Positions 23,292 through 48,052 of a stretch of 64,000 nt of DNA are shown piece by piece. This stretch comes from Candidatus Vogelbacteria bacterium (GTDB lineage: Bacteria > Patescibacteriota > Minisyncoccia > Phycocordibacterales > XYD1-FULL-46-19). The position numbers and the translations under genes were made by a program. Where the stretch lies: assembly GCA_903878275.1 (NCBI GenBank), contig CAIRHC010000007.1, forward strand, positions 8,727 to 72,726. The letters are read 5' to 3'. Every line of letters begins with the position of its first letter. Position 1 is the stretch's first letter. The notes under the pieces are model-generated. The model was not told the origin of the DNA. It searched no databases and saw only the letters and a list, made by a program, of their open reading frames with translations.

Positions 23292-23669
23292 ATGTTCGCT
23301 AAAAAAATTATGGATCAATTAGCTCCTTCGGTTCCATCCGAAAATGGGACAAAAAAAATCACTATTATTAGTGTCGTGGTTATTGTGTTACTTCTGGTCG
23401 TTGCTTTTGTACTTCTTTCAACTGGTGGTAATCAATCAGCTCCGGGTATCACTACTGGTGGTGCTCAAAAGATGACCGATGCCCAGCGTCAAGCGATTAT
23501 GGATTCATTAGCCAAGTCCGCCGCGACCGCGCCAAAAATGACCGACAAAGAACGCACCGCCATTATGGACTCACTGGCCAAGTCCGCTGCAACTGCGCCA
23601 AAAATGACCGACGCCGAACGTCAAGCCATTATGGATTCACTCGCCAAGTCCGCTGCCTCGGCTCAATAA
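23292..23669 (+). CDS. Small N-terminally anchored protein with three tandem 22-aa repeats (KMTD.[QE]R.AIMDSLAKSAA.AP)
   Basis: TM helix ITIISVVVIVLLLVVAFVLL, then three 66-bp tandem repeats (23469-23666) that differ mostly at synonymous positions. Confidence 0.6.
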   Translation: MFAKKIMDQLAPSVPSENGTKKITIISVVVIVLLLVVAFVLLSTGGNQSAPGITTGGAQKMTDAQRQAIMDSLAKSAATAPKMTDKERTAIMDSLAKSAATAPKMTDAERQAIMDSLAKSAASAQ

Positions 23670-23767: not shown

Positions 23768-26700
23768 ATGTCAAAATATCAAAAACTTATCCCAACCCTA
23801 AAAATGCTTCTCTTGGTCGTGGCCTTGCTGGCTAGTAGTACGGTGGCTCTGGCTGACTACTCTGCACCGACAGACTCGCCACCAACCTGTAATCCAAATA
23901 CTCCGGGCTGTTTGGTTCCGATAAATGTTGGGACAAGTTCGGCAAGCTCACAAGAAAAGAAGGGATTGTTGAGTCTTGGTGTTTTGAGTTTGATAAGTGG
24001 TTACGTTGATACAACACTGGAAGCTGCAAAAAATATGGTCGCAACGATTGTTTCTGATACCACCTCTTTGAATATTTTTGGTAGAGGCACTTTTCCTAAT
24101 CGAGTAACAAAGGTTTGGGACAACCTTTGGGTTACTGGCACTGCCTCTTCGACAAATGTCGTAACCACAAATCTCTATGCAACAAGCACGTACGCCACTC
24201 ACTATTATTGTGCCGATGGTGGTACAACTTGTGGAATAGGTGGTACCGCTGGCGTAAAAACAATAACTGGTAATACTGGTATTACCGCATCCTCTCCTGA
24301 TTCGTCTGGTAATGTCAATTTGACAAACACTGGAATCGTCGGAATAGAACCTGGTAATGGTATCGAAGTCTCCTCAAAAGATTCTAACGGTAAAGTGACC
24401 ATAACAAACAAAAATCCGAATGCTGGTGTTTCTCAAATAACTAGCACGGGTGGTACGGTGAAAATTACCCCAACCGATGGTGGGGGGAAAGGGATTGTTA
24501 ATCTTGAGGTTGATCCTACTAAAATCGTTACCGGAGTTTCTGGCTTAAAGAAAAGTGGTAGCATAACCTTGACTGGAACTGAAACTGACGGTGTGTACAC
24601 TGGCGAAGTCACGATCGGAGGCGGAGGTCCCGGCGAATCTGTCTGGGTTCCAAACTATAATGATCCTGATCAACAGGGGCATATTGGTGTTAATTATCCG
24701 GCAGGTGCTGTCGGCATCGGTGAACATAGCCCAAATCACCAACTAGAGTTGGGAACCAATTTTACTGGTTCCACAGCTGCGCAGGACGAGTTGTTCGGCG
24801 ATATGATGGCCTCTTTTCTCGTGCTTAATTATTTTGAGACCAACCCGATAAGTAGTGTTGCTTCGAGCCGTGTAATAAATGCTCTCTATTCTGTCAAAAG
24901 AGCTGGTACAGATGGAAATACTCCACCATATAAACAAACTGATCTATATTTTAACGAAAACAAAGTTGCCACGAATGAAAATATAAATAATATCATTCAG
25001 GAATGTATCAATGCTGGCAGTTGTTCAAGTTTTGGCGACAATCTATGGTCAGTTTCAACCGACGCCAACGGTAAAAAGACAATGGCTCCGAACGGTAATC
25101 CCGATATTATAAGTCTCGGCACTGTAAATACTGGTGAATTAGGTGCTACCGACATTAAAACTATCGGCGGTGGCTTAGGCAATATTACCGCTGGACGTTA
25201 TGTTTATGCCAATCAAGGACTTTACCTTGGAAAACCGGATCCGAGTGTGCTTGGACAAAGCTCTGTCAGTCAGCTTATTGGTGATGAAAGGATTCTAAAG
25301 TGGGAAGATAGTCCGGTTTTGACTTTAAAAAACTATGCTGATTATATTACCAATTTGGGCGATAACTCTTGGATTGTTGGAGATGGTACTATTTCTCTAA
25401 AAACTCCAGCAAATAAAGTTAACATCGACTCAAAAGACATCACTATCGGTAAAATGACAGCTGACAACGTTTCCGATGGCACAGTCACTGTTCTTAGCAA
25501 TCTTGTAACAAAGAATATAGACACACCTAATGATATTACTGCTGGGAACATCAATGCTGTTTACGATGTTAAAGCAAACAGAGTTATAACTGGCCAAGAT
25601 CTTCAACTTGGTCTCGCCAACTCGATCATCCGTCAACAAAAAATTGGTGACACTGACGCTTCAGCTTTGACATTCTTAACTGGCGGACAAGCTGCCGCCA
25701 ACATTTATTCTGGCGGTCTATCTGTCGCCACTCAATACACCGCGGCGTCAATTCCTCCAAACAAAGGTGCTTATATCGAAGGTTCTGTCGGCATCGGCAC
25801 ACAGCCAGCTACCGATATGAAACTCGACGTTGTTGGTAATATCAAAGCCTCGGATAAAGTATTAGCTTCAAATCTATGTACCGTAGATGGGGCAAATTGT
25901 AAATCAACCGGAGATATTATAAACAATTTCGGCGGCACCAACGTCTGGGAGACTTCTTCTTATCCTAATGCTGTAACTGGTCCAAACATCCAAGCTGAAT
26001 ATTCTGATGCTCGAGCTGGAAATACTGGTGTTGTCGCGAAGAATATGAACGCTCTGGGTTCTTCGGGCTTTGGAGCTATTAAGGACTATGATCCCACCAA
26101 GCAGGCACCAGGAGCGCCTTATGTCGGAGATCCTTTCCGAGATTCGATCCGCTTTATGGCTTATGGAAGTAGTATTAGCGAGGGTTTGGATTCGATAAAA
26201 AAGAGCGGTGCGGAAATAATGTCTGGTGTAAATATGACCGGCGGTTTGTCTATTACTGCTGGTGCGCCTGCCGGTGATATTCGTTTCTATGCCGGCGGAC
26301 GTAAAGCTGAAAACAGGATAATGACTCTGACGAAGGCTAATGGTAAACAATATATTCAGGCTCCTTCTGCGACCTTGGGAGTAAAGGATATTACAGCAGA
26401 CTCTGTCGGCATCGGCACAGCTGCTCCCCGTGGCAGTCTAGACATCAACAAAGGTTCAGCAATGTGGTCCAGCTACAACTATGGCAAACAGCTTGTTCTT
26501 GATGCTGGTACCGGACAAAACACCGGTATGGCAATTGTCGGAGACGATGCAAAAAGCAAAAACTGGGGAATTACCGCTGGCTCTGACGGTGAGAGCTTGA
26601 CCATAAGTGCAATGCCTAAATTAGACGATTTTAGTACACCACCCGATGGTTTTATGAGTTTTAATAGAGCAACCGGTGTCTCTTTCAACAAAAATGTCGG

Positions 26701-29700
26701 TGTTAATGGGAATATTCAAGGCATTGGTGTCTTGGCTGATAATGTCACAGCAAATTCTGTACAACTAGCCGGCAATGGGGGTGGCGACGGTCTTACCTCC
26801 GATTCCAATAATAAACTTCTCTGGAATAATACTCCGGTTGGAGGCAATAATACTTTTATTGGTGGTGATAGCTCCTGGGCTTCGACTACTGATTTCTTAT
26901 ATCCAAATAGTGATCAATTCAGTAAAAACGTCGGCATCGGCACCCAATCTCCGTCCGAAAAACTAGAAGTTGCTGGAAATATTAAAGCCACTGGGAATAT
27001 CAGTGCTCAAGAAGGTTATTTCAATAAACTAGCCACATTTGGTGCCGGAGCTGTTACTTTTGGAAAACATGTTGTTAGTAGTATCTTGCAAGTCAACGGT
27101 GGTGTCGATCTGGCTGTTCACACAGGCAACGTCGGCATCGGGTTGCCTAAGATTATGCAGGCTGGAGACTCTCCCGGTAACCCCTCCGCTCCTGGCATAC
27201 CAACCGCTAAGTTAGATGTCGGCGGGGATATCAAGTCAAATTCTCTGATTTTAAATTCAAAAAATAGCGCTACTGACAACAGTGGAGCTCTTGAGGTTGT
27301 AAGGATTGGTGGAGTGCCAACTGTCCCACCTTCAGACGCAGTGACGGTTTCCAGTTGTCAGTCCTGGAGGAATGGTTACCCCACAAACTTTTTTACCGCT
27401 TACGATGATGTACAAGGTTGTAATGCCGCTGTTGATGCTGGCGATTTGGTTTTCCCTCATGAGATCATTCCTGCCTCTGGCGGGACTCCAGCTTCGGGCG
27501 GATCGGTCAGTCTCTATTTCGACGGCAAACCAGTCGGCGACAATGCGTGGACCAAAAACGGTAACGATATCACCAACAGTAATACTGGCAATGTTAATAT
27601 AAATTCAAATAACATAACGATCGGACGAATGAAAAGTGATGGCTATACCCCCGACGGTACAACACTCATCTTGAGTAATCTCGAAACAAAAAATCTTTTT
27701 TCCTATGGAGGTATTTCAAACCTAGGCAATATTACTACTCAAGGCAACGTCGGTATCGTCAATAATATCACTGGATATGTTCCCCGTGGCAGTCTAGACA
27801 TCAACAAAGGTTCAGCAATGTGGTCTGGCTCCAACTACGGCAAACAACTTGTTCTAGATGCTGGTGTCGGACAAAACACCGGTATGGCAATCGTCGGAGA
27901 TAATGGGGCTGGCAAAAACTGGGGAATTACTACCACTGGTAGTGGTGACAACCTGGTTATAAGTGCAATGCCTGGCTTGGAATATAGCGATACTGGTCAT
28001 CAACCTGATAATTTTATGAATTTTAGTAGAACAACCGGTGTATCCTTCAACAAAAATGTCAGTATCACTGGCAATGTAAATGCCAGCGGAAATATCACCG
28101 GAAACGATGTCGCCGCAAATACTCTGAATGTCCCGACAATCACGACGACCAACCTTATCGCTTCTGGTTCAGTCATCTCTCCTGTTGTCGCCTTAACTAA
28201 TAATTCTGCCAACCCCGTGTATAAAAGTCTCACTATGGACAATAGTGGAAAGCTGTTGTTTGGCGGCAAACCAGTCGGCGATAACAATTGGACAAAAGAT
28301 GCCCGGGAAAATATTAGTAACAGTAATACTGGCCTAGTCTCTGTCGGTCCAGTTAAAGATTATCTTTCGAGTTCGAACATTAAATTTGCTGTTAATGGTG
28401 GTAGTATGGTGGTAAGTGATGATCTGTATGTTGGTAGTGGAGGTTCTGACCCGAAGGGTGAGCTTATTTTGCAAGGGAAGAAGGGGATTCAGTTTTTAAA
28501 TTCGCTCGAAATTAGTGATACTGCCGCGCCTAATTCTTTGTACACAAAAAACTCCGGGTCGGACCTATACTACAATGGCCTACAGATAAATACCCCACCG
28601 TCTTGGAATCCAAGTGGCAATAATATCTCATATGCTGATACCGGCAACGTCGGCATCGGCACCAATGCTCCGCTTGGAAAATTAGATATTACTGGTGGAG
28701 CATCTTCTATCCCCCCTTCTTCAGGAGTTGCCCCGGCGACATCGCTTGCTCTTCGTTTGCACGACAACTCTAATGTCGTTTTAGATTTTGGTCTGAACAA
28801 CAGTAACGGTTCGTGGTTGCAAACAGCCAACAAAACAGACTTGAATGCAAACTATCCATTATCATTAAATCCAAACGGTGGAGGCGTCATTATTGGAAAA
28901 AACCCAATAAATGGTACCATCACTGCTGGATTGACATTGGATGTAGCCGGAGCCATAAAAGGTACCGATGTTTTTGCAACTCACTTGAATGTTGCTAATA
29001 ATGATTTTAATCCACTCGAACCAGCTATCAAGGCTGCTTCATATGTCTCTGGTCGATATGGTGGAGGATATGTTATGCGGGATAATACTAATAATTATGC
29101 GGGTATGTGGACAGACAACAACGGAAATACATTGAAGTTGTCCGCTGGCGGGTCGGCAGATAGTGGTAAATTGAATACGACCAACATAATGTCCTTAAAC
29201 TACAATGGAGATGTTGATGCGACAAATTTCTGTATAACCAGAGGTACCAAACGGAAATGTCTTTCTGACCTATTATTCACAAATTCTTCAATAAAGTTGG
29301 ATTCTCTTGGTGTAGATAAGAATACTGTTTCTTTTAAGATATCTTGGGGAAAGGTAGTCGTCTCGGATACTGTTAACTGGCGAGTTGCATACAAAGACAA
29401 CACCGGGGTGGAGAAAGAAAAATACAACATACCAATCACTGAGGCTGCCGGTGAGTACTCTGGAAGTTTTGAAGTTACTGGTGCGACCGGTAACTTTGTG
29501 TTGACAGCGTCTCTTGTTTCAGGTGGGGGTATTGATGATAGTGTTTTTGCACAATTTTATATTACCCCACCACCAACACCTAGTGTTAACATTGTGTATG
29601 CTGCCTCTGAAAAATGCCCTGCACCTATTACAGATCCAAATTGTTTCTTGCCTAAGTTTCGGTTTGACTACGCAAACATTCCTGATCACTATAAAGCGAT

Positions 29701-30898
29701 TGTCAACACTACTGGTCAATGGTTGTTTCCTGCGCCAAAACCAGGCGAGGGTGCAACTCACGGACCAGTCACCGGGGAAGGGATAGACGTTGTTGGCACC
29801 AACGTATTCAATAATGATGGTTTATCTCAACCTACTTACAGTGGCGTAGGTACGAAAGAGATGACGGTTCAAATAGTATCAGAATATGACATGGAAAATG
29901 TTCTCGTGAGTGACACGGTGCAATACAATTCTGACGGTACGATAAATGTCGATAAAGGAAGAATGGTATTTGAAGCTAACGGTATCCCGAAACAAGATGC
30001 TAACGGAAATGTGACTTGGGGCGTAGGTCTCTTTAATGACGGTGATTTTGACTGGAGTAGTGGTTACAAAATTGTTTGGTCTGAAAGCCGCAATCCTACT
30101 CTTTGGTACACTTTGGCCACTCTTGACAATCTATCTCTTACAAAAGGTGCTTCGGCGAGCTTGTATGACTACAGTGCTGGTCAAAGTACTTTCAATCCAT
30201 ACACCTCCCAGGGTCTCGTTGGTGGTCTTAGTTATGACATGAGTTTTAAAATTGTGAACGGTTCTGGGGTGGCAGTGTCACCTGTCGTGAGAGAGAACGT
30301 GACTATTTTAAAGAAAGATGGCGCTTGCGGTCCTAGTAATACTGCTTCAGGAGTTGTGCCAAATCACGTGTATTCAGTAGCTGGCTATAATAATGAAATT
30401 CGAGCAGATTCTGATTCCTGTTCAGTCGGTACTGTGGCGAGCACATTTACTCTCAATCCTGGTGGTGAACCTGGTTGGACTTGTGGCGGCTCTGGTAGTG
30501 GAACAATCAACCCGTCTCCTGACTGTAAGGGTTACTTTGCTCCGACTGCAAAGAGAGCCCCAACATATACTGTCCCATGGAGGCATACTAATAATGGCTA
30601 TTATGTAAATGTATATGATAATCAACAAATCGACCATGTAAATACTGCCACAGGGGGAGGGCTACCTTGTGTAATACGAGCATTATCAGAATTAGGGAGT
30701 GATCAGATATCTTGGATTGCTGCTAGACTTAACGCCTATGGTGCGAATAGCGGCGGGGCGCTAGAGTTAAAAATAGCTGAACCGGCATACGGGATGAGCA
30801 AGGTAACACTGGCATGGCTGTGTATGGGTGTGGACGAGAACTGGTATGAGGTTCCTAATGCTGGGCAGGTTTATAACCCTCCATTGACCACAGATTAG
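23768..30898 (+). CDS. Giant secreted surface protein (2376 aa), Gly/Thr/Asn-rich with recurring (N/S)VGIGT...KLDV motifs and internal ~100-aa duplications
   Basis: Signal peptide MSKYQKLIPTLKMLLLVVALLASSTVALA; at least 7 copies of the (V/I)GIGT motif; a duplicated block PRGSLDINKGSAMWS..NYGKQLVLDAG.GQNTGMAIVGD...NWGIT...ISAMP......F.R.TGVSFNKNV at about 26420-26720 and 27780-28090; Cys-containing C-terminal region; minus-strand ORFs inside it are antisense artefacts. Confidence 0.85.
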   Translation: MSKYQKLIPTLKMLLLVVALLASSTVALADYSAPTDSPPTCNPNTPGCLVPINVGTSSASSQEKKGLLSLGVLSLISGYVDTTLEAAKNMVATIVSDTTSLNIFGRGTFPNRVTKVWDNLWVTGTASSTNVVTTNLYATSTYATHYYCADGGTTCGIGGTAGVKTITGNTGITASSPDSSGNVNLTNTGIVGIEPGNGIEVSSKDSNGKVTITNKNPNAGVSQITSTGGTVKITPTDGGGKGIVNLEVDPTKIVTGVSGLKKSGSITLTGTETDGVYTGEVTIGGGGPGESVWVPNYNDPDQQGHIGVNYPAGAVGIGEHSPNHQLELGTNFTGSTAAQDELFGDMMASFLVLNYFETNPISSVASSRVINALYSVKRAGTDGNTPPYKQTDLYFNENKVATNENINNIIQECINAGSCSSFGDNLWSVSTDANGKKTMAPNGNPDIISLGTVNTGELGATDIKTIGGGLGNITAGRYVYANQGLYLGKPDPSVLGQSSVSQLIGDERILKWEDSPVLTLKNYADYITNLGDNSWIVGDGTISLKTPANKVNIDSKDITIGKMTADNVSDGTVTVLSNLVTKNIDTPNDITAGNINAVYDVKANRVITGQDLQLGLANSIIRQQKIGDTDASALTFLTGGQAAANIYSGGLSVATQYTAASIPPNKGAYIEGSVGIGTQPATDMKLDVVGNIKASDKVLASNLCTVDGANCKSTGDIINNFGGTNVWETSSYPNAVTGPNIQAEYSDARAGNTGVVAKNMNALGSSGFGAIKDYDPTKQAPGAPYVGDPFRDSIRFMAYGSSISEGLDSIKKSGAEIMSGVNMTGGLSITAGAPAGDIRFYAGGRKAENRIMTLTKANGKQYIQAPSATLGVKDITADSVGIGTAAPRGSLDINKGSAMWSSYNYGKQLVLDAGTGQNTGMAIVGDDAKSKNWGITAGSDGESLTISAMPKLDDFSTPPDGFMSFNRATGVSFNKNVGVNGNIQGIGVLADNVTANSVQLAGNGGGDGLTSDSNNKLLWNNTPVGGNNTFIGGDSSWASTTDFLYPNSDQFSKNVGIGTQSPSEKLEVAGNIKATGNISAQEGYFNKLATFGAGAVTFGKHVVSSILQVNGGVDLAVHTGNVGIGLPKIMQAGDSPGNPSAPGIPTAKLDVGGDIKSNSLILNSKNSATDNSGALEVVRIGGVPTVPPSDAVTVSSCQSWRNGYPTNFFTAYDDVQGCNAAVDAGDLVFPHEIIPASGGTPASGGSVSLYFDGKPVGDNAWTKNGNDITNSNTGNVNINSNNITIGRMKSDGYTPDGTTLILSNLETKNLFSYGGISNLGNITTQGNVGIVNNITGYVPRGSLDINKGSAMWSGSNYGKQLVLDAGVGQNTGMAIVGDNGAGKNWGITTTGSGDNLVISAMPGLEYSDTGHQPDNFMNFSRTTGVSFNKNVSITGNVNASGNITGNDVAANTLNVPTITTTNLIASGSVISPVVALTNNSANPVYKSLTMDNSGKLLFGGKPVGDNNWTKDARENISNSNTGLVSVGPVKDYLSSSNIKFAVNGGSMVVSDDLYVGSGGSDPKGELILQGKKGIQFLNSLEISDTAAPNSLYTKNSGSDLYYNGLQINTPPSWNPSGNNISYADTGNVGIGTNAPLGKLDITGGASSIPPSSGVAPATSLALRLHDNSNVVLDFGLNNSNGSWLQTANKTDLNANYPLSLNPNGGGVIIGKNPINGTITAGLTLDVAGAIKGTDVFATHLNVANNDFNPLEPAIKAASYVSGRYGGGYVMRDNTNNYAGMWTDNNGNTLKLSAGGSADSGKLNTTNIMSLNYNGDVDATNFCITRGTKRKCLSDLLFTNSSIKLDSLGVDKNTVSFKISWGKVVVSDTVNWRVAYKDNTGVEKEKYNIPITEAAGEYSGSFEVTGATGNFVLTASLVSGGGIDDSVFAQFYITPPPTPSVNIVYAASEKCPAPITDPNCFLPKFRFDYANIPDHYKAIVNTTGQWLFPAPKPGEGATHGPVTGEGIDVVGTNVFNNDGLSQPTYSGVGTKEMTVQIVSEYDMENVLVSDTVQYNSDGTINVDKGRMVFEANGIPKQDANGNVTWGVGLFNDGDFDWSSGYKIVWSESRNPTLWYTLATLDNLSLTKGASASLYDYSAGQSTFNPYTSQGLVGGLSYDMSFKIVNGSGVAVSPVVRENVTILKKDGACGPSNTASGVVPNHVYSVAGYNNEIRADSDSCSVGTVASTFTLNPGGEPGWTCGGSGSGTINPSPDCKGYFAPTAKRAPTYTVPWRHTNNGYYVNVYDNQQIDHVNTATGGGLPCVIRALSELGSDQISWIAARLNAYGANSGGALELKIAEPAYGMSKVTLAWLCMGVDENWYEVPNAGQVYNPPLTTD

Positions 30899-30934
30899 TA
30901 GCCGGAGGAGGCGAAGCCTTCGCTCTGGGTGCCA

Positions 30935-31150
30935 CAATAGGGGGAGGTCGAACCTCACCTCAAGGTGCCAAATAGGGGGAGGTCGAACCTCACCTCAAGG
31001 TGCCAAATGTGTTGTAATATAATTTGTTAACGAGGCGGGAAAAATGTGTTGTAATTTGCTGACGATAGGATAATTAAAAAAGAAAAAACCACCCCAGGAA
31101 TTTCGCCTAGCAAAATTCCTGGGGTGGTTTAGTTTTCCGGTTTTTGTTTT
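30935..31150 (+). repeat. Cassette-punctuating repeat unit 1 (with 34-nt tandem duplication and terminator hairpin)
   Basis: AATAGGGGGAGGTCGAACCTCACCTCAAGGTGCC occurs twice in tandem, followed by AAATGTGTTGTAAT...GCTGACGATAGGATAAT and then the hairpin CCACCCCAGGAATTT-CGCCTAGCA-AAATTCCTGGGGTGG + TTTAG. Confidence 0.7.
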
Positions 31151-31191
31151 TTCTCTTTTTTTTACAAAAGACTTCGTTTGGAAATAATGTT

Positions 31192-31202
31192 TGTGATATA
31201 AT
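31192..31202 (+). promoter_or_regulatory. Extended -10 promoter (TGTGATATAAT) 9 nt upstream of the ATG, giving a near-leaderless mRNA
   Basis: The same 60-nt promoter segment (TTTTACA[A/G]GAGACTTCGTTTGGAAATAATGTTTGTG[A/C]TATAAT) precedes the NYN fragment, with its -10 at 33044-33054. Confidence 0.5.
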
Positions 31203-31211
31203 CTTCTCAAG

Positions 31212-31601
31212 ATGATAAAAAGATTTTTGGAGTGGCTGGAGTTAAAAGTAAAACTTAATGATTTAGAAAGCGAGCCACCAATCGTTCATGAAAGAGAGCT
31301 TTGGTGGATTAGTTTTGGTGAAAATATTGGTTCGGAAATTGACGGGAAAAGTCAATTGTTTTCTCGTCCCGGTTTAATTCTCAAGAAACTATCCCGTAGT
31401 TTCTATCTTGTTGCTCCGACGACATCTCAAATAAAAACCGGTTCTTGGTATTCAACGATAAAACACAAGGGTAAAGAGATGTCTGTTTGTTTACATCAGG
31501 TCAGAACGGTTGATTGTCGACGTTTATCTAGCTTAATGGGGCAAGTTGACGAAAAAGATTTTACCGTAATCAAAGAGTCATTTTTCAAATTATATCGGTA
31601 A
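31212..31601 (+). CDS. MazF/PemK/EndoA-family toxin homolog (paralog of 21248-21640) with N-terminal extension; no antitoxin
   Basis: RELWWISFGENIGSEIDGKSQLFSRPGLILKK...VAPTTSQ...HQVRTVDCRRLSSLMGQVDEKDFTVIKESF aligns with EndoA (RPVLVIQ...ITAQ...EQIRTIDKQRL...LDDEMMDKVDEAL). Confidence 0.7.
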   Translation: MIKRFLEWLELKVKLNDLESEPPIVHERELWWISFGENIGSEIDGKSQLFSRPGLILKKLSRSFYLVAPTTSQIKTGSWYSTIKHKGKEMSVCLHQVRTVDCRRLSSLMGQVDEKDFTVIKESFFKLYR

Positions 31602-31716
31602 AGTTACTTGAAAAAAATATTCCTCACCTTTTTATGGGTGAGGCCGTGGCTAAATGCCGAATGTATTTTTAGTATAGACCTTATTTAAAAAAAGTCAAAT
31701 TTTACTGTTTTAACTC

Positions 31717-31845
31717 CTCCGAAAGTCGAGGTCGAACCTCATATTCGGGAAAAATGTGTTGTAATTTGTCGATGGTAGGCTAATCAAAAAAGAAAAAACC
31801 ACCCAAGGAATTTCGCTAGACGAAATTCCTTGGGTGGAGTTGTTT
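31717..31845 (+). repeat. Cassette-punctuating repeat unit 2
   Basis: GAGGTCGAACCTCA...AAATGTGTTGTAATTTGTCGATGGTAGGCTAATCAAAAAAGAAAAAA + hairpin CCACCCAAGGAATTTCG-CTAGA-CGAAATTCCTTGGGTGG; the compensatory CCAGG>CAAGG / CCTGG>CTTGG change preserves the stem. Confidence 0.7.
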
Positions 31846-31902
31846 TTTGGTCAGTTTTATCAACTTTATAAACTTACAGTATTTTGACAAACTTTATAAA
31901 GT

Positions 31903-32844
31903 TTGCTAATATCAGTTTTAATGACGATTAAAGAAAAATTACAAATTATCAAACAAACTACCGGTTTAACTCAAACCAAACTGGCAGAGCGCTTAGGCGT
32001 GTCTTTTGTCACCTTTAATAGTTGGTGGACGGGGAAAACCTTGCCTCGTTTGAAAAAGCAGGTTCTTATTGGCGAGTTGTTTCTAACCTTAACTGGTCAG
32101 AAAATTATCCCGACCGAACAACTGCTCGCGAAGAAGCAAGCTCTACAAAAAAAATCAGCTGAACACAAGAGTGTTATTTCTGAAATATTAAATAATCCAG
32201 ATCTTCGAGATAGTTTCCTGTTAAAACTTACTTACAATAGTAATAAAATTGAAGGGAGCACTTTGTCTGAATCAGAGACTGCCGCGATTCTTTTTGATAA
32301 CACCGCTTTACCAGACAAAAGTTTAATCGAACAATTAGAAGCCAAAAATCACCAGACTGCTCTTAATTATCTTTTTGATTATATCGCAAAAAATGATGAG
32401 TTGACTGAAAAATTGGTGTTAAAACTTCACAGTATTTTAATGAATGGCATTCGTGATGATGCTGGGGTTTATCGTAACCATGGCGTCAGAATTCTTGGGG
32501 TTGATTTGCCGACCGCTAATTATTTGAAAGTCCCCGAATTGATTCCCGGTATAATTAGGAGGGCGAATAGTAAATCTAAAGATGTCGTGGCTTTGTCGGC
32601 AGAAATTCATAGTCGGTTTGAACAAATCCACCCTTTTTCTGACGGTAACGGTCGGATCGGACGGATTTTGATGACCGCGATGTTGCTTCGGGCAAACATG
32701 GCGCCAGCGATAGTTAAACAGGAAGACAAACAGTTTTATTATGCTTGTCTTTATGGGGCTCAAGTCAAAGAAAACTATAACCAGTTAGAAGATTTTTTGT
32801 GTGATGCCATAACAAACGGTTTTAAAGTCTTGGAGCGAGATTAA
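31903..32844 (+). CDS. Fic/Doc-family protein (AMPylator) with N-terminal XRE-type HTH
   Basis: Fic motif HPFSDGNGRIGR; N-terminal LTQTKLAERLGVSFVTFNSWWTG helix-turn-helix; likely true start MTIKEK at 31921. Confidence 0.9.
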   Translation: MLISVLMTIKEKLQIIKQTTGLTQTKLAERLGVSFVTFNSWWTGKTLPRLKKQVLIGELFLTLTGQKIIPTEQLLAKKQALQKKSAEHKSVISEILNNPDLRDSFLLKLTYNSNKIEGSTLSESETAAILFDNTALPDKSLIEQLEAKNHQTALNYLFDYIAKNDELTEKLVLKLHSILMNGIRDDAGVYRNHGVRILGVDLPTANYLKVPELIPGIIRRANSKSKDVVALSAEIHSRFEQIHPFSDGNGRIGRILMTAMLLRANMAPAIVKQEDKQFYYACLYGAQVKENYNQLEDFLCDAITNGFKVLERD

Positions 32845-32846
32845 AC

Positions 32847-33000
32847 CGAAAGTCGCCGAAAGTCGAGGTCGAACCTCACCTCAAGGTGCCAAATGTGTTG
32901 TAATTTCCTGACGGTAGGATAATCAAAAACGAAAAAACCACCCCAGGAATTTCGCTTAGCGAAATTCCTGGGGTGGTTTTAGTCCTCTGGTTTTTATAAT
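32847..33000 (+). repeat. Cassette-punctuating repeat unit 3
   Basis: CGAAAGTCGAGGTCGAACCTCACCTCAAGGTGCCAAATGTGTTGTAATTTCCTGACGGTAGGATAATCAAAAACGAAAAAA + hairpin CCACCCCAGGAATTTCGC-TTAG-GCGAAATTCCTGGGGTGG + TTTTAG. Confidence 0.7.
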
Positions 33001-33061
33001 ATTTTTTCTTTTTTTACAGGAGACTTCGTTTGGAAATAATGTTTGTGCTATAATCAGAAAA

Positions 33062-33241
33062 ATGAAGAAAGAAAATAACTATGCCTTTATTGATAGTCAG
33101 AATTTGAATTTGGCAATTAGATATTTAGGGTGGGAATTGGATTTTGCTAAGTTTCGAATTTATCTAAAAGATTGTTTTGGCGTAGATAAAGCCTATCTTT
33201 TTATCGGTTTTGTAAACGACAATCAACCGCTTTATACTTAA
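33062..33241 (+). pseudogene. Truncated N-terminal fragment (59 aa) of an NYN-domain gene, paralogous to 12953-13477
   Basis: Own translation: MKKENNYAFIDSQNLNLAIRYLGWELDFAKFRIYLKDCFGVDKAYLFIGFVNDNQPLYT*. This matches the first ~55 aa of the full-length paralog (MKKENNLAFIDGQNLHLGTKLNNWVVDLYKFRIYLKDKYHVTEAYYFLGCV), then a stop. It is driven by the duplicated extended -10 promoter at 33044-33054. Confidence 0.6.
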
Positions 33242-33345
33242 GAAAAAGAGGCATAACCTAGGGACGAAACCCTTCGGGCAGCCTCTTTATCGTGATAGTT
33301 TAATAATAGCAAATATGGCTGATGTGTCAACGTAAGCTTAGTTAA

Positions 33346-33386
33346 AACATCGAAACCCCACATTGCTGTGGGGTTTCTCGGAGGCC
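33346..33386 (+). terminator. Terminator AAACCCCACATTGCTGTGGGGTTTCTCGGAGGCC, same family as 21641-21682
   Basis: Hairpin + T-run; shares the AAACCCC...GGGGTTTCTCGGAG framework. Confidence 0.5.
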
Positions 33387-33491
33387 GAAGCCATAATACT
33401 TATTATAATATACCACTTATTTTTTTAAGCAAGGGCGGGGGCGGTTTAGTTTCCGGTTTTTCTGATCTTTTCTAGCCACATTTCTTGTTTT

Positions 33492-33920
33492 ATGCTAAAA
33501 TTACAGTATATGGTTATCGATGTGGAAAAAAGAGATGAAATCATTGAATACTGGCGGGAAGGAGCGGGAGAAGCGCTTGAAAACGCTGAATATTTAATGG
33601 AGAAGAAAAGTTTTTCCTATGCTTTATTTTTTGCTCATTTAGCGACAGAAAAAATTCTTAAATCTCTGGTGATTAAGAAAACCAACGACCATGCTCCTCG
33701 GACTCATGATTTACTCTATTTGGTCGGGTTGTCGGGGGTTGATTTATCAAAAAGCCAAGAGAATCTGTTGTTAGAAATTGGTAAATTCAATATTGAAGGT
33801 CGTTATCCAGAAGAAAAACAAGAAGCTTCAAAAAAAATTAACCAAGCAATGGTAGAAAATTATCTAATTAAAATTAAAGAATTATATTTATGGTTATCGT
33901 CGGAGCAGAAAGAAAAATAA
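33492..33920 (+). CDS. HEPN-domain protein (toxin component of a HEPN/MNT module)
   Basis: All-helical; ALFFAHLATEKILKSLVIKK...HDLLYLV resembles HEPN helices; immediately followed by and overlapping an MNT nucleotidyltransferase gene. Confidence 0.6.
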   Translation: MLKLQYMVIDVEKRDEIIEYWREGAGEALENAEYLMEKKSFSYALFFAHLATEKILKSLVIKKTNDHAPRTHDLLYLVGLSGVDLSKSQENLLLEIGKFNIEGRYPEEKQEASKKINQAMVENYLIKIKELYLWLSSEQKEK

Positions 33921-34231
33921 TTAGTAGCGAGGAAATTAAAAAAATCCTGGCTCTTTTTAAAGAAAAGTTGGTGGCAGAAAAAGTGCCTTTTGCGAGCATT
34001 TATCTTTTTGGTTCTTATGCGACAGGCGAGGCTGACCGTGATAGTGATATTGATATTGCGGTGGTGATTTCGCCAAAGGCGAAAATTGACGAGGAGCTCG
34101 TTGACCATTGGCGTTGGTTAGCTAAAGAGATAAATGTTAAGACTGAAGTGCATATTATCAAAACTGAAGATTTTGATAATCGCTATCTATCTTTACCCGC
34201 TTATATTAAAAAAGACGGGATTGTTGTTTAG
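33890..34231 (+). CDS. Minimal nucleotidyltransferase (MNT) antitoxin-type protein
   Basis: GS-x9-DxD polymerase-beta-type motif LFGSYATGEADRDSDIDIAVV; overlaps the HEPN gene by 31 nt. Confidence 0.8.
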   Translation: MVIVGAERKIISSEEIKKILALFKEKLVAEKVPFASIYLFGSYATGEADRDSDIDIAVVISPKAKIDEELVDHWRWLAKEINVKTEVHIIKTEDFDNRYLSLPAYIKKDGIVV

Positions 34232-34232
34232 G

Positions 34233-34345
34233 GTAATATAATTTGCTGACGAGAAAATAATCAAAAACGAAAAAACCACCCCAGGAATTTCGCTTAGCGA
34301 AATTCCTGGGGTGGTTTTAGATTTCTGGTTTTTCTGATTTTTTTC
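34233..34345 (+). repeat. Cassette-punctuating repeat unit 4 (lacks the GAGGTCGAACCTC head)
   Basis: GGTAATATAATTTGCTGACGAGAAAATAATCAAAAACGAAAAAA + hairpin CCACCCCAGGAATTTCGC-TTAG-GCGAAATTCCTGGGGTGG + TTTTAG, directly upstream of pilB. Confidence 0.7.
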
Positions 34346-34386
34346 TTTCTCTTTTTCTGTTGTTCTGTTAAAATTAAATAAGTTTT

Positions 34387-36141
34387 ATGCCTATCGAAGT
34401 TGGACCACTAAAAAAGTTTTTACTTGATGCTCGCTTGATTTCCAAAAGTGATTTGGAAATTGCCGAGCAGGAATCGATCGAGAAAAAAACTCGACTCGAG
34501 GATGTTTTATTGAACAAGGGGCTTTTATCGGAAGACGATATTCGTCAGGTCAAAGCTTATGTTGGCGGTATTCCGTTTGTCGATTTAAAAAACCAAAAAA
34601 TTCCGAAAGATATTTTGTTTATCGTGCCCGAACCACTCGCTCGCAAGCACAACATAATTGCCTACAACAAGACACCGGCTGGTTTGGAGGTGGCGATGCT
34701 TGATCCGCTTGATCTCGAGCACATTGATTTCATCCGCAAAAGTTCTGGTCTGAAAATTTTACCTCGTCTGACCGACACCGAATCAATCAAAAAAACTTTA
34801 CTGCTCTATCAAAAAAGTTTGAAAGCCGAGTTTGGCGATATTATCCAAAAGGAAACTCTGGCGATTAAAAATTTGGCCAACACTAAAAGTGGTGAAGAAG
34901 TGAGTGCAGTTGAGTTACAAAAGCTTGCTGAAGATTTACCGGTTATTCGCATCGTCGATACGGTTTTGTCGCACGCCATTATGCAAAAAGCGTCGGATAT
35001 TCATATCGAGCCATTTGAAAAAGAAGTTTTGATTCGTTATCGGCTTGACGGCGTGCTTTACGACGCAATGGTCTTACCGAAAGAGACGGCTTCCGGCTTG
35101 GTCGCACGCATAAAAGTGCTGACCAATCTTCGTCTCGATGAAAAAAGATTGCCACAAGACGGGCGTTTCAAAATTCAAAACAAGGATCAGAATGTATCTT
35201 TTCGTGTTTCGACTTTGCCGACCAGCTTTGGTGAAAAGATTGTAATGCGTCTTTTGCCTGATGCGACCAGCGATCTGACGCTCGAGAGTATGGGTTTTCA
35301 CGGGACTGATTTGGAAAAAATCCAGGAAGCGCTCAAACAAACGACCGGGATGGTCTTGGTCACTGGTCCGACCGGTTCGGGAAAATCGACCACAGTTTAT
35401 ACGATTTTAAATATTTTAAATACGCCAGGGGTTAATATTTCCACTATTGAAGATCCGATCGAATATCAGATGCCGAGGATTAACCAAACTCAAGTCAAAC
35501 CAGAAATTGGTCTAACCTTTGCTGGCGGTTTGCGTGCCCTCGTCCGCCAAGATCCAGATATTATTATGGTTGGGGAAATTCGCGATCGTGAGACGGCGGG
35601 GCTGGCTATCAATGCCGCTTTGACTGGCCACTTGGTTTTATCGACCTTGCACACCAATTCGGCGGCGGGCACTTTGCCTCGTTTGCTTGATATGGGTGTC
35701 GAGCCATTTTTGGTGACCTCGACCATTAAAATTGTCATTGCTCAAAGACTGGTTCGACGCTTGACCGACGAAAAAGAAGAATACAAATTGACCGAAGCGG
35801 AACTGGCGGACATTGGCAAACACGCTGATTTGACGGCGGTGCTTGCTTTGCTAAAAAAAGAAAGAATTTTAAAAATGACCGACACTTGGCAAGATGTTAG
35901 TTTTTATCGACCGAAAGCTGGCGTTGATGAAAAAGAAGCCTATACTGGTCGGATTTGTATTACGGAAATTTTAACAATGAATCGGGCGTTGCGCGATTTG
36001 ATTACCGAAAACAAAACCGCCGACGAGCTAGAAGAGTTTGCCAAAAAAGCCGGAATGATCTCGATGCTCGAAGATGGTATTTTTAAAGCGGCACAAGGTA
36101 TTACGTCCATTGAAGAAGTTTTTCGAGCGGTAAGTGAATAA
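34387..36141 (+). CDS. pilB: Type IV pilus assembly ATPase PilB (GspE family)
   Basis: Walker A GPTGSGKST; GspE N-domain; His-box region LSTLHTNSAAG. Confidence 0.9.
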   Translation: MPIEVGPLKKFLLDARLISKSDLEIAEQESIEKKTRLEDVLLNKGLLSEDDIRQVKAYVGGIPFVDLKNQKIPKDILFIVPEPLARKHNIIAYNKTPAGLEVAMLDPLDLEHIDFIRKSSGLKILPRLTDTESIKKTLLLYQKSLKAEFGDIIQKETLAIKNLANTKSGEEVSAVELQKLAEDLPVIRIVDTVLSHAIMQKASDIHIEPFEKEVLIRYRLDGVLYDAMVLPKETASGLVARIKVLTNLRLDEKRLPQDGRFKIQNKDQNVSFRVSTLPTSFGEKIVMRLLPDATSDLTLESMGFHGTDLEKIQEALKQTTGMVLVTGPTGSGKSTTVYTILNILNTPGVNISTIEDPIEYQMPRINQTQVKPEIGLTFAGGLRALVRQDPDIIMVGEIRDRETAGLAINAALTGHLVLSTLHTNSAAGTLPRLLDMGVEPFLVTSTIKIVIAQRLVRRLTDEKEEYKLTEAELADIGKHADLTAVLALLKKERILKMTDTWQDVSFYRPKAGVDEKEAYTGRICITEILTMNRALRDLITENKTADELEEFAKKAGMISMLEDGIFKAAQGITSIEEVFRAVSE

Positions 36142-37372
36142 TAAAATGAAGCTTTATTATCGAGCAAAAAAACCAAATGGTGAAGAGGTGACCGGCATTC
36201 GCGATTCGGCAGATCGTTTTGCTTTGGCGCGCGAGCTTCGCGACCAAAATTTAACCGTCTTTTTTGTTAGTGAAGATATCCGAGGGGCTAGTCAGCAAGG
36301 GCGTTTGTCTTTTATTAATTCATTGACTAAACACATCAGCCTGAAAGAAAAAATTATTTTTATCAAAAATCTGGGCGCAATGATTGGTGCGGGCTTGTCG
36401 CTTATTCGGACATTGTCGGTTTTGGAGCGGCAGAGTGGTAGCGGTTATCTGAAAAAAATTATTGCTGATTTGGCGGATAAAATAAATAGTGGGCAAAATT
36501 TAAGTTCGGCGCTAGCAAGTTATCCAAAAGTTTTTTCGGAAATTTTAGTCTCAATGACGGCGGTGGGGGAAGAGACCGGCAAATTGCCCGAGACTTTAAA
36601 AACTGTCAGTGAACAACTGGCGAAAAATTATGATCTTCGACGCAAAGTGTCGGGGGCGTTGATTTATCCGGCGATTGTTATTTTTGCCATCATTGTCATC
36701 GGAATTTTAATGATGGTTTATCTCGTGCCATCTTTGACAGCGACCTTTAAAGATATGAAAGTGGCGTTGCCTTTTTCGACGCAAGCAATGATTTGGTTGA
36801 GCGATTTTTTTGTTAATAATCTCTATTATATTTTAGGAATGATGGCGGTTTCTTTTATCGCTTTTGGCGTTTGCCTGCGTTCGGCCACGGGGCGAATTAT
36901 TTTGGACCGTTTTATTTTAAGTTTGCCGTTTTTTGGGAAAATTACTCGTTGGTTTAATAGCGCGATTATTATGCGCAACGTATCCTCGCTCGTCAGCTCG
37001 GGAGTGAGTATGGTCAAGACGATTGAGATTACCGAACGTGTGACGCAAAATCATTATTACAAAAAAGTGATGAAAGAGGCTTTTGTCAAAGTGCAAAAAG
37101 GGACATCGTTATCTTCTATTTTTAATGATAACCAAAACTTGTTTCCGGTTTTTGTGATTGAATTGACGGCAGTCGGGGAAGAGACTGGTAAATTGCCGGA
37201 GATGCTTTTGCAAGGCGCATTTTTTTATGAAGAGGAGGTGGAGCAGGTGACCAAAAATATTTCGTCGGTGATTGAGCCAATTTTGATGATTGTGATTGGT
37301 GTTGCTGTCGGCTTTTTTGCGGTGTCGATGCTCGGACCGATGTATTCTTTAAGCAGCGCGATTAGTAAATAA
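36134..37372 (+). CDS. pilC: Type IV pilus platform protein PilC (GspF family)
   Basis: Duplicated GspF domains with the (A/S)VGEETGKLPE motif twice; polytopic. Confidence 0.9.
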   Translation: MNNKMKLYYRAKKPNGEEVTGIRDSADRFALARELRDQNLTVFFVSEDIRGASQQGRLSFINSLTKHISLKEKIIFIKNLGAMIGAGLSLIRTLSVLERQSGSGYLKKIIADLADKINSGQNLSSALASYPKVFSEILVSMTAVGEETGKLPETLKTVSEQLAKNYDLRRKVSGALIYPAIVIFAIIVIGILMMVYLVPSLTATFKDMKVALPFSTQAMIWLSDFFVNNLYYILGMMAVSFIAFGVCLRSATGRIILDRFILSLPFFGKITRWFNSAIIMRNVSSLVSSGVSMVKTIEITERVTQNHYYKKVMKEAFVKVQKGTSLSSIFNDNQNLFPVFVIELTAVGEETGKLPEMLLQGAFFYEEEVEQVTKNISSVIEPILMIVIGVAVGFFAVSMLGPMYSLSSAISK

Positions 37373-37378
37373 AAAAAC

Positions 37379-39193
37379 TTGTTTTTTTTACGTTCAAATC
37401 AAAACCTACAATCTACAACCTACAACCTACAAACTAGTTGGGTGTCCGGGTTCACTTTGGTTGAGACGCTGGTGGCGGTGGCGATTTTTGGCATTATTGC
37501 ACTCGCGGTTTACGATGGTTTCGCCAGTGTCAGTGTTTTATCGAATGCGTCTCAATTAAAATCTCAAGCTTTGGCGCTCGCGACCGAGCAGATCGAAGTA
37601 ATACGAAATTTGCCTTATTCTGATGTCGGACTTATTGATGGTTTGCCAGCGGGGAAAATTCCCAATACTCAAAATCTAACACGTGGTGGTAAAACTTTTT
37701 TGGTGACGACGGCTATCCGCAACATCGATGACCCATTTGATGGCACAATCGGTGGTACACCAAACGATCTTAGTCCGGCTGATTACAAACAAGCGGAAGT
37801 TACGGTGGAATGTCAGAGTTGTCGCAATTTTAGTCTGGTTGTTTCGGACACGATTGTTGGGCCTGGTGGTCTGGAGACGAGTACTGGTAATGGCGCTTTG
37901 TTTGTTAAAGTTTTTGATGCCAATGGTCAGCCGGTGATGAATGCGAACGTTCATATTGAAAATCTGACTAATTCTCCCAAGATTATTATCAATGACGTGT
38001 CCGACAAAAATGGTTTGCTCGCGGTTGTTGATGCTCCACCCGGTAATTTTGCTTATAAAATAACTGTCAGTAAAGATGGCTATTCTAGCGCTCAAACTTA
38101 TGCCAGTGGCGAAAATGGTTTGACCAACCCTGCTGATCCCAACGCGACAGTGGTGGCGGGGCAGGTGACGCAAGTCAGCTTGGTGATTGATAAATTGAGC
38201 CAGATCAAAGTGACGGCTTCTAATGCGCTTTGTCAGCCACTTGGACCGTTCAATTTTAGTTTGGCGGGTGATAAGTATTTGTCGGTTGATCCCGCGATTT
38301 TGAAATATCAAAAAGATTTGGTAGTTGATTCTTCCGGCTTGCTTAATTTGACTGGTCTGGAGTGGGGAACCTACACTCTTGAATCAAAAGATAATGTTTA
38401 TGATGTGGCTGGCTCGTTCCCACTTTTTTCGGTACCGGTGGCGCCTGGTTCGACCAACGAAGTGACTTTAGTTTTGACGCCGAAAATTCCCAAAGGGCTC
38501 TTGGTTTCAGTTAAAGATGGCGTGACGGGATTACCTTTGTCTGGTGCCAGCGTGAATTTGTCTGGTGAAAGCACCAACGATACATTGATGACCAACCAAG
38601 GTTTTTTTAATGATACTGACTGGTCGACCGGTTCTTTTGAAACTGATGGCAAAATCGAAACAGTAAGTCCCGCCGGTGAAATTAAATTAAAAAAACCGTT
38701 TGCGGTTTACGAGACGAGCGGGCAATTAATTTCCGGCATTTTTGATACCGGCACCAGCTCGGTTTCGTATTATAATATTTCTTGGACACCGACCGACCAG
38801 GCAACTTCAACTGGTGCTGATGCGGTGCGATTGCAGATTGCTTCAAGCGCCTCGTCGTCGCCAGATTCTTGGGACTTTACTGGGCCAGATGGCACAGCCA
38901 ATACTTTTTATACGGTCGGCAATAGTAATGTCAGCACCAATCATAATGGTCATCGCTATTTGCGCTATAAAGTTTTCTTACGTACGGCGGATGAAAATTT
39001 CACACCAAACGTGTCCGATATCTCTATTACTTACAGTTCGGCGTGTGTGCCGTTTGGACAAGTTTTTTTCAAAGGTCTGGCTAGTGGGACTTATAATTTA
39101 ACCGCCAGTTTATCTGGCTATCAGCCGTTTAATGGGCAAGTCAGTATCGCGAACAACTGGCAAAGTTATGAAATAATTTTAAATCCACAATAG
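37379..39193 (+). CDS. Large pilin-like protein with prepilin-type N-terminal cleavage/methylation motif (start may be the internal GTG at 37445)
   Basis: GFTLVETLVAVAIFGIIALAV class-III signal; 604 aa beta-rich; four CTACAAC heptamer repeats in the first 60 nt. Confidence 0.7.
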   Translation: MFFLRSNQNLQSTTYNLQTSWVSGFTLVETLVAVAIFGIIALAVYDGFASVSVLSNASQLKSQALALATEQIEVIRNLPYSDVGLIDGLPAGKIPNTQNLTRGGKTFLVTTAIRNIDDPFDGTIGGTPNDLSPADYKQAEVTVECQSCRNFSLVVSDTIVGPGGLETSTGNGALFVKVFDANGQPVMNANVHIENLTNSPKIIINDVSDKNGLLAVVDAPPGNFAYKITVSKDGYSSAQTYASGENGLTNPADPNATVVAGQVTQVSLVIDKLSQIKVTASNALCQPLGPFNFSLAGDKYLSVDPAILKYQKDLVVDSSGLLNLTGLEWGTYTLESKDNVYDVAGSFPLFSVPVAPGSTNEVTLVLTPKIPKGLLVSVKDGVTGLPLSGASVNLSGESTNDTLMTNQGFFNDTDWSTGSFETDGKIETVSPAGEIKLKKPFAVYETSGQLISGIFDTGTSSVSYYNISWTPTDQATSTGADAVRLQIASSASSSPDSWDFTGPDGTANTFYTVGNSNVSTNHNGHRYLRYKVFLRTADENFTPNVSDISITYSSACVPFGQVFFKGLASGTYNLTASLSGYQPFNGQVSIANNWQSYEIILNPQ

Positions 39194-39195
39194 TT

Positions 39196-48048: not shown

Positions 48049-48052
48049 AAAA

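Follow-up and report, generated by a model that had tools for sequence, protein, structure and literature searches.

On a 64,000-nucleotide stretch of a genome assigned to Candidatus Vogelbacteria (contig CAIRHC010000007.1; in the following the window, always meaning the whole 64 kb analysed) we found a gene encoding a giant exported protein, the sole protein of this kind in the 64 kb, which we call the fibre protein. Its open reading frame (ORF) begins with ATG and runs uninterrupted over 2,376 aa, as an initial annotation made from the DNA sequence had described. The signal peptide claimed there was supported by a heuristic reading of the N-terminus (MSKYQKLIPTLKMLLLVVALLASSTVALA followed by DY), with lysines at positions 3, 6 and 12 of the n-region, a hydrophobic core at aa 13-24 and the cleavage-site residues A-L-A before D30. 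This signal peptide is also the only hydrophobic segment of the protein. The described richness in four small or polar residues is reflected in the composition (G 12.6%, N 9.6%, S 9.3%, T 8.9%).

23768 to 30898, + strand: fibre gene, encoding an exported protein of 2,376 aa (mature form ~243 kDa, isoelectric point (pI) 4.8)
23768 to 23854, + strand: Sec-type signal peptide, aa 1-29, from the heuristic reading

As a whole, the fibre protein had no match in Pfam, NCBIfam or PHROGs, and the HMMER search against Pfam that the initial annotation had proposed returned no family either for the entire sequence or for ten overlapping segments of 260 aa. A sequence search of the PDB with the whole protein gave nothing, close relatives of the entire sequence were found neither in a genome scan, whose set did not include the genome of the window, nor in metagenomes, no full-length relative was found, and a word-indexed homology search with the whole protein recovered only the protein itself. 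Exact-protein look-ups of the fibre and of EF-Tu gave no record. The absence of matches in the word-indexed search is weak evidence for such a low-complexity protein, since two sub-segment queries (the module described below and the C-terminus) missed the parent protein although it is contained in that database.

The repeated module and its relatives

The initial annotation had reported at least seven copies of a motif around the residues GIGT and had associated it with phage tail fibres and beta-helix repeat proteins. The exact string VGIG occurs six times (aa 315, 674, 880, 1055, 1122 and 1628), whereas residue shuffles contain 0.17 on average and 3 at most. For the longer pattern VG[IV][GN]..P...[LV], four copies are present and 0.01 expected from shuffling, which rules out a coincidence of composition. 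The number seven holds in a loose sense, as degenerate copies (VGIV.. at aa 1326 and a stretch at aa 1704-1735) raise the total to seven or eight, but only six copies are exact and the complete tail KLDV.G.IKA is present in about four.

The motif belongs to a larger module. An exhaustive HMMER search with aa 601-1800 as query, in which counts refer to protein-cluster representatives, yielded 1,642 relatives at E<=1e-3 (175 of them at E<=1e-10), and for nearly all the best alignment lies over aa 1620-1735; a word-indexed search with the module returned six weak matches. Despite these 1,642 representatives, no Pfam model covers the module. It is ~95-130 aa long and closed by the GIGT motif, with the consensus GNVGIGTxxPxxKLxVxG..LPATSGTTQ..LRL..NAVLDIG.N..GAWLQST..L..YPLLLNPNGGNVGIGT. 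In the fibre protein the canonical copy occupies aa 1615-1745, where the body follows the pattern LALRL..VVLDFG..GSWLQT..YPLSLNPNGG, and scored 155 bits against the family profile, which had been seeded with this sequence. The same profile recognised degenerate copies at aa 258-337, 672-697, 878-933, 1052-1128 and 1321-1389.

Among structures in the PDB, the module profile matched chain A of 8OND, the Bdellovibrio protein Bd2133, with an E-value of 6.4e-19, and further matched four other Bdellovibrio structures named as 'cell wall surface anchor family' (8OML, 8OJN, 8OL4 and 8ON4). The 161-aa module segment of the fibre protein, used alone in phmmer, also ranked 8OND first (E 5.3e-5). Bd2133 is one of the mosaic adhesive trimer (MAT) fibres of Bdellovibrio bacteriovorus, together with Bd1334, Bd2439, Bd2734, Bd2740 and Bd3182 (Caulton et al., Nat Microbiol 2024, PMC10769870). 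Displayed at the surface, MATs are trimeric fibres of intertwined beta-helices; they have a signal peptide and an N-terminal domain that is conserved, and each of their beta-helix domains is closed by a 'capping loop' with the consensus V-G-G/N-pi-X-X-P-X-X-X-L (PMC10769870). The residues of Bd2133 that aligned to our motif (VGINTAAPLQKLHVE) end at chain residue 152, which is E813 and therefore the published E813/N814 domain boundary. The published consensus fits VGIGTxxPxxKL provided that VG may be followed by one hydrophobic residue, as it is in Bd2133 itself (VGINTAAPLQKL). Judged by sequence, the VGIGTxxPxxKL motif is the capping loop of the MAT beta-helix, so that one beta-helix domain ends at each copy.

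The module is also found in phage tail fibres. Fifteen of the 59 closest relatives carried a Peptidase_S74 domain and two of the 59 a Phage_T4_gp36 domain. Peptidase_S74 is an intramolecular chaperone of trimeric phage tail fibres and endosialidases. When the family consensus was compared with GenBank phages, it matched the distal tail fibre of Thermus phage phiFa, tail fibres of Pelagibacter phages, a 'chaperone of endosialidase' of S-CRES1 and a tail fibre of S-TIM5; the fibre protein's own module gave no tblastn match in these phages, the matches being to the family consensus alone. In IMG/VR the module was encoded at 267 loci on viral contigs, and 8 of 10 module-bearing ORFs tested from viral contigs matched tail-fibre families of PHROGs. 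The 8OND match, the capping-loop consensus, the S74-bearing relatives and these phage matches show that the earlier association was correct; by sequence, both phage tail fibres and the trimeric beta-helix adhesin fibres of solved structure contain homologues of the module. The capping-loop motif has also been noted in MyRF, the Myelin Regulatory Factor, which contains S74 (PMC10769870), and our profile touched the human protein (7dc3_A) at its second GNVGIGT motif with an E-value of 1.5, which is not significant. A literature search for the motif string gave irrelevant matches only, for example to microcin J25.

Capping loops, modules and other repeats are distributed along the shaft of the fibre protein as follows:

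24704 to 24745, + strand: capping-loop motif 1, aa 313-326 (GAVGIGEHSPNHQL), from pattern and module profile
25781 to 25858, + strand: capping-loop motif 2, aa 672-697 (GSVGIGTQPATDMKLDVVGNIKAS), from pattern and module profile
26393 to 26767, + strand: duplicated block A, aa 876-1000, a divergent beta-helix module starting VGIGTAAPRGSLDI, from self-comparison
26921 to 26992, + strand: capping-loop motif, aa 1052-1075 (SKNVGIGTQSPSEKLEVAGNIKAT), aligning with the capping loop of the MAT protein 8OL4 (E 0.024)
27122 to 27247, + strand: capping-loop motif carrying a 14-residue insertion, aa 1119-1160 (GNVGIGLPKIMQAGDSPGNPSAPGIPTAKLDVGGDIKS), from pattern
27503 to 27601, + strand: lead-in repeat 'LYFDGKPVGDNAWTK..NSNTG', aa 1246-1278, from self-comparison
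27749 to 28117, + strand: duplicated block B, aa 1328-1450, from self-comparison with block A
28244 to 28345, + strand: lead-in repeat 'LLFGGKPVGDNNWTK..NSNTG', aa 1493-1526, from self-comparison
28610 to 29002, + strand: canonical beta-helix module, aa 1615-1745, with capping loop, ~70-aa body and second, degenerate capping loop; the best-conserved stretch among the 1,642 relatives

Blocks A and B are 62% identical over 121 aligned residues and 78% identical over a 64-aa core, which supports the duplication of ~100-aa blocks that had been described. At the DNA level they share 78.7% identity over 301 nt, with a synonymous divergence (dS) of ~0.56 and a ratio of nonsynonymous to synonymous divergence (dN/dS) of ~0.55. 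With this dS the duplication is real but not especially recent, and in this respect the earlier wording was too strong. Both blocks are divergent versions of the first half of the module (hhalign against the module alignment: E 4.8e-5, probability 68%), and block A was matched by the module profile at aa 878-933 with an i-E of 8e-7. The two segments previously noted for the residues GKPVGDN.WTK likewise proved to be repeats, 59% identical between aa 1246-1278 and aa 1493-1526.

We surveyed the distribution of the module in species-representative genomes with a strict 10-residue pattern and tblastn confirmation. This yielded 243 loci, of which the best 80 were counted:

Patescibacteria: ~26 loci of the best 80
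Bacteroidota: 22 loci of the best 80
Bdellovibrionota: 5 loci of the best 80
Archaea (DPANN-like): 4 loci of the best 80
Verrucomicrobiota: 4 loci of the best 80
Omnitrophota: 2 loci of the best 80

In Patescibacteria, Omnitrophota and a few other groups the module-bearing ORFs were often 2,000 to >4,000 aa long, with up to 65 VGIG motifs. A giant protein with GIGT motifs is therefore not unusual in such genomes; what is unusual about the fibre protein is that it has no full-length relative. Eight giant proteins from this survey (L003, L016, L020, L031, L033, L038, L039 and L076) resemble it in being very large and exported and in containing one canonical module or more as well as many VGIG motifs. 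Many of the giants differ, however, in carrying either a MAT-type N-terminal domain (L020, L031, L068) or an S74-like C-terminus (L016, L038, L039, L076), of which the fibre protein has neither. Giant ORFs of this type were also seen on viral-class contigs of IMG/VR: one of 4,491 aa with 40 VGIG motifs (L098, 1050-14522), and adjacent pairs of 2,599 aa and >2,123 aa that recurred in three samples (L108, L109 and L111; 2154-9950 and 9958-16326). These could be fibres of jumbo phages or cellular contigs that were misclassified.

The head, the C-terminal region and a related locus

Outside of the repeats, we distinguished the following segments of the fibre protein:

23864 to 24322, + strand: N-terminal head, aa 33-185, reading P..PP.C.P..P.C..PINVG..Q.K.G.L, conserved in the positional orthologue P0029
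27176 to 27691, + strand: shaft segment, aa 1137-1308, the only mid-protein stretch conserved with P0029 (its aa 234-400; 40% identity, E 3e-23, 74.5 bits)
29003 to 30895, + strand: C-terminal ~630 aa, aa 1746-2376, putative distal tip or specificity region
30323 to 30526, + strand: four-Cys pattern ACG..C..WxC..C, aa 2186-2253, also present in P0029 at aa 847-900

Protein P0029 is encoded on a 6.1-kb metagenome contig (L161) that matches the gene order of the window between positions 21734 and 36141. On this contig nusA (minus strand) is followed by an ORF of 121 aa with a transmembrane (TM) segment and three repeats, by the gene for P0029 and, directly downstream of it, by pilB. The two loci are related, as their PilB proteins are 66% identical and the small ORF (575-940) is homologous to a small ORF at 23292-23669 of the window (E 4e-7). 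The fibre proteins themselves are much less similar. P0029 has 1,241 aa as compared to 2,376 aa in the window and is thus half as long; it lacks the duplicated blocks, and the two proteins can be aligned solely at aa 33-185 (34% identity) and aa 1137-1308 (40%). P0029 is a positional orthologue that evolves far faster than its neighbours, having diverged by growth through duplication and by replacement of most of the shaft and the tip.

The head has the pattern P..PP.C....C..PINVG..Q.K.G.L, which is common to P0029, P0073, P0086, P0147 and L078, and in BLASTP it aligned with aa 53-174 of P0029 at 34% identity (E 7e-10). By analogy with solved fibres it may represent the cell-proximal end. One protein with this head type, the 653-aa GIGT fibre P0086 (L163/L164; head AWTEP..PP..PLNVG), has a precomputed match to the Pfam family Shufflon_N, the constant region of the PilV pilus-tip adhesin, which hints that some members of this head type are related to pilus adhesins. 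The genes of three further proteins of this head type have no pilus genes beside them. Among module-bearing genes in general, a relative of PilB or PilC lay within 6 kb in only 2 of 80 genome loci, and a general linkage to pilus genes was therefore rejected.

The C-terminal region differs in composition from the rest, as the initial annotation had noted. The last 450 aa contain 1.78% Cys compared to 0.62% elsewhere, 2.22% Trp compared to 1.09% and 5.33% Tyr compared to 3.01%; overall Cys, Trp and His are enriched ~2-3-fold and Tyr and Phe ~1.4-1.8-fold. No sequence match was obtained for the C-terminal ~630 aa in Pfam, NCBIfam, PHROGs or the PDB, known MAT tip folds included, and homologues of this region were found neither in genome and metagenome scans nor in the word-indexed search, whose negatives are weak for a low-complexity protein. 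The four-Cys pattern is the only C-terminal feature in common with P0029, and the corresponding BLAST alignment was not significant. Similar Cys-spaced modules are common in surface proteins of Patescibacteria. A distinct binding domain at the C-terminus, as suggested earlier, is plausible, and we regard this region as the putative distal tip, which would determine specificity. Neither the whole protein nor its 260-aa segments matched Peptidase_S74 (PF13884), and the motif [ST]D.[RK].K does not occur anywhere in the fibre protein; processing by an S74 domain was rejected because this motif is absent. The last 1.9 kb of the gene are not repeated elsewhere in the window and no reverse-transcriptase domain was found among its annotated ORFs. 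Without template repeat and reverse transcriptase in the window, the gene was rejected as the target of a diversity-generating retroelement.

A probable fibre at the cell surface

We interpret the protein as a Sec-exported, MAT-like adhesin forming a surface fibre, with the head at the surface of the producing cell, a shaft of six to eight capped beta-helix domains and a lineage-specific distal tip, and we would give this interpretation a probability of roughly 60%. Three chains would intertwine into one long fibre, in the order of 100 nm if the dimensions of MATs scale. The conserved N-terminal head would hold this fibre at the producer's surface, and the C-terminal ~630 aa, rich in Cys and aromatic residues and lineage-specific, would form a distal tip, whose ligand would sit on another cell or surface. 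Internal duplication has lengthened the shaft, and while the flanks are conserved, shaft and tip are changing rapidly, which is what one would expect if they determine specificity. The fibre is probably a trimeric, fast-evolving surface adhesin, for which we infer trimerisation, orientation, display, binding and target from solved relatives. The host-attachment adhesin proposed in the initial annotation is the best-supported function, though only by analogy with the surface-displayed MATs, one of which binds glycans of prey. The MAT in question, Bd2439, binds Proteus glycans (PMC10769870).

The comparison with MATs showed common features as well as differences. Like the MATs, the fibre protein has a signal peptide, a capping-loop beta-helix shaft by sequence (E 6.4e-19 with the profile, E 5.3e-5 with its own sequence), a mosaic design and a variable end without S74, similar to the eight 'NS74' MATs, and its gene belongs to a cellular organism whose probable mode of life is on other cells. 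The C-terminus of MATs is an S74 chaperone or an adhesive tip, of which several different kinds exist, and all 21 Bdellovibrio MATs have an N-terminal domain of ~130 aa (PMC10769870). The fibre protein lacks this domain and has its own conserved head type instead, is ~2.3 times longer than a typical MAT (~1,000 aa), contains one canonical module only and has a C-terminal 630 aa unlike known tip folds by sequence; its gene is not from Bdellovibrio and lies beside type IV pilus genes. With S74 tail fibres of phages it has the beta-helix and capping-loop module in common, S74 ends being present in the 15 of 59 closest relatives mentioned above, but it differs by the missing S74 domain and SDxxxK motif, the Sec signal and the chromosomal housekeeping context. 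Knowledge of the MAT architecture dates from 2024, and the module occurs widely; the fibre protein combines this module with none of the MAT N-terminal domain, S74 or a recognisable tip.

Several observations weigh against a MAT-like adhesin. Trimerisation, surface location and adhesion are assigned by analogy. No relative is detectable for about 60% of the protein, aa 330-670 and the entire C-terminus included, and only one module is canonical while all others are degenerate. A hidden Markov model (HMM) of the MAT-type post-signal domain (I.YQG.L..) gave no match in the fibre protein even at E<=10 and unfiltered. This model had been built from eight module-bearing ORFs, including L035 from a metagenome-assembled genome of Bdellovibrionota but not the HD100 proteins themselves, and it recognises 24 of 232 module-bearing proteins, among them L035, L043 and L048 of Bdellovibrionota and some giant ORFs of Patescibacteria. 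There is also no S74 chaperone that would drive assembly of a trimer. The beta-helix repeats for which the initial annotation had suggested AlphaFold did not appear in the monomer model of the module (70-sequence alignment), which is a small beta-sheet of 4-5 strands without a solenoid, predicted with moderate confidence (predicted local distance difference test (pLDDT) 70.5, core 76-90), and Foldseek searches of PDB and BFVD with this model returned no significant match. The beta-helix assignment hence rests on homology to an intertwined trimer and not on the predicted fold; a weak monomer model is unsurprising for a single chain of such a trimer.

A structural protein of the envelope or matrix, such as an S-layer-like coat, a sheath or a biofilm fibre that uses a shaft of tail-fibre type for mechanical reasons, would agree with the acidic pI of 4.8, with the Thr/Ser/Asn/Gly-rich composition and low Cys content over most of the length, and with the fibre being the only such protein in 64 kb and lacking any recognisable lectin or adhesin domain. 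We consider this unlikely, given that neither SLH nor any other domain known for anchoring or lattice formation was found, that the solved relatives are adhesins with variable tips and that the extreme divergence from P0029 suits a specificity determinant better than a conserved coat. It is rather improbable that the shaft presents a C-terminal catalytic domain for degradation of polysaccharides or cell walls in the manner of phage tailspikes and endosialidases. With its 630 aa the C-terminal region has room for an enzyme, single module-bearing relatives carry Pect-lyase_RHGA_epim, End_tail_spike or Peptidase_G2 domains, and the PHROG families touched by viral relatives include ones with the annotation hyaluronidase or tail spike; yet no catalytic family matched the C-terminus at any threshold tried, and the single-sequence AlphaFold prediction for the C-terminal 632 aa was uninformative and unusable (pLDDT 32).

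The neighbourhood of the gene might point to a component or accessory of the type IV pilus, for example an adhesin associated with the pilus or a fibre acting in concert with its retraction. Besides the adjacency to pilB on the related contig, the window gene lies 3.5 kb upstream of pilB with only inserted toxin-antitoxin cassettes in between, and P0086 with its Shufflon_N match is a relative. A possible interplay with type IV pili was also raised by the authors of the MAT study (PMC10769870). Nonetheless we hold such a role to be very unlikely. The signal is of Sec and not of prepilin type, strong hairpins separate the fibre gene from pilB, and the linkage is seen at just the 2 of 80 loci; as the two syntenic loci are related, their shared order may simply be inherited. 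A pilin or minor pilin was rejected, as the N_methyl motif (Pfam) is absent from the fibre protein but present in the neighbouring pilins at 37379 and 39196. A tail fibre of a phage, prophage or tailocin caught in the chromosome is highly improbable even though the module is common in phage tail fibres, because the protein has a Sec signal peptide and no direct PHROG match, no phage structural, packaging, integrase or lysis gene was found within 20 kb on either side, and the locus is kept between nusA and pilB in a related organism.

The surface fibre adhesin would be of interest since host recognition by ultrasmall episymbiotic bacteria is largely unexplained. Epibiotic growth of cultivated Saccharibacteria requires type IV pili as well as several 'adhesins' (PMC10633639). 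The individual gene is of a fairly expected kind, a big adhesin in a surface-dependent organism, with a function assigned by inference, and it is a candidate determinant of host range and host recognition. It further ties a large class of unannotated giant exported proteins, the 1,642 cluster representatives of which many are from Patescibacteria, DPANN, Bacteroidota and predators, to the solved architecture of Bdellovibrio MATs and phage S74 fibres. This link predicts a trimeric fibre with the conserved head at the cell, the variable tip pointing outward and the specificity residing in the tip. No publication linking MAT fibres with Patescibacteria was found in the searchable literature. Only tentatively, two further ideas might be combined. 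In this lineage, the giant fibre with its own head and the small three-repeat membrane protein could be fixed partners of the type IV pilus locus, forming a two-part capture apparatus in which the rapidly diversifying fibre would serve to recognise the host cell and the pilus to pull, and the GIGT module could mark one superfamily of cell-to-cell recognition fibres in phages, bacterial predators, Patescibacteria and DPANN archaea. Were there such a superfamily, organisms living on other cells would have borrowed the phage solution for host recognition.

Neighbouring genes

Upstream of the fibre gene the window encodes an H+-pyrophosphatase and nusA on the minus strand. Downstream, mazF, fic and a HEPN gene precede the pilus genes (pilB, pilC and pilin-like genes), which are followed by tpiA, pgk, recJ and comEC and finally by fusA and tuf; trigger factor and ClpP are also among the neighbours. 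The fibre gene is chromosomal and not part of a prophage, an origin that was rejected on account of this context of nusA, H+-pyrophosphatase, toxin-antitoxin, pilus and glycolysis genes. The following features lie close to it:

23292 to 23669, + strand: upstream ORF of 125 aa with one TM segment and three 22-aa repeats KMTD.ER.AIMDSLAKSAA.AP, with a homologue on L161
31086 to 31130, no strand assigned: strong palindromic hairpin 3' of the fibre stop codon, likely a terminator, from sequence
34387 to 39801, + strand: type IV pilus genes pilB (34387), pilC (36134), a 604-aa pilin-like gene (37379) and a pilin gene (39196), from Pfam

The repeats of the small upstream ORF correspond to a 66-bp tandem DNA repeat of 2.9 copies at 23466-23656, and its product may be a partner or anchor of the fibre. 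The interval of 3.5 kb between the fibre stop codon and pilB (30928-34350) looks like an array of inserted cassettes of toxin-antitoxin type, with mazF at 31212, fic at 31903 and the HEPN gene at 33492. The cassettes are separated by a 122-nt unit with a hairpin of 20-bp stem, present four times (31042, 31752, 32891 and 34229), and a 35-bp tandem repeat at 30928-31008 has a further copy at 32865-32904. Cassettes and 122-nt units are absent from L161, where pilB follows the fibre gene directly.

The type IV pilus genes mentioned in the initial annotation were confirmed with pilB, pilC and the pilin-like genes at 37379 and 39196. The 604-aa pilin-like protein (37379-39193, + strand) combines an N_methyl prepilin motif with CarboxypepD_reg and SpaA-like (prealbumin-fold) domains, and this unusually large pilin could itself be an adhesin. 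Further downstream ComEC is apparently split, as an ORF with Competence and DUF4131 domains (47954-49585) overlaps a metallo-beta-lactamase ORF (49554-50399). An IS200-like transposase (Y1_Tnp) is encoded on the minus strand at 56673-57383, between the fusA region and tuf.

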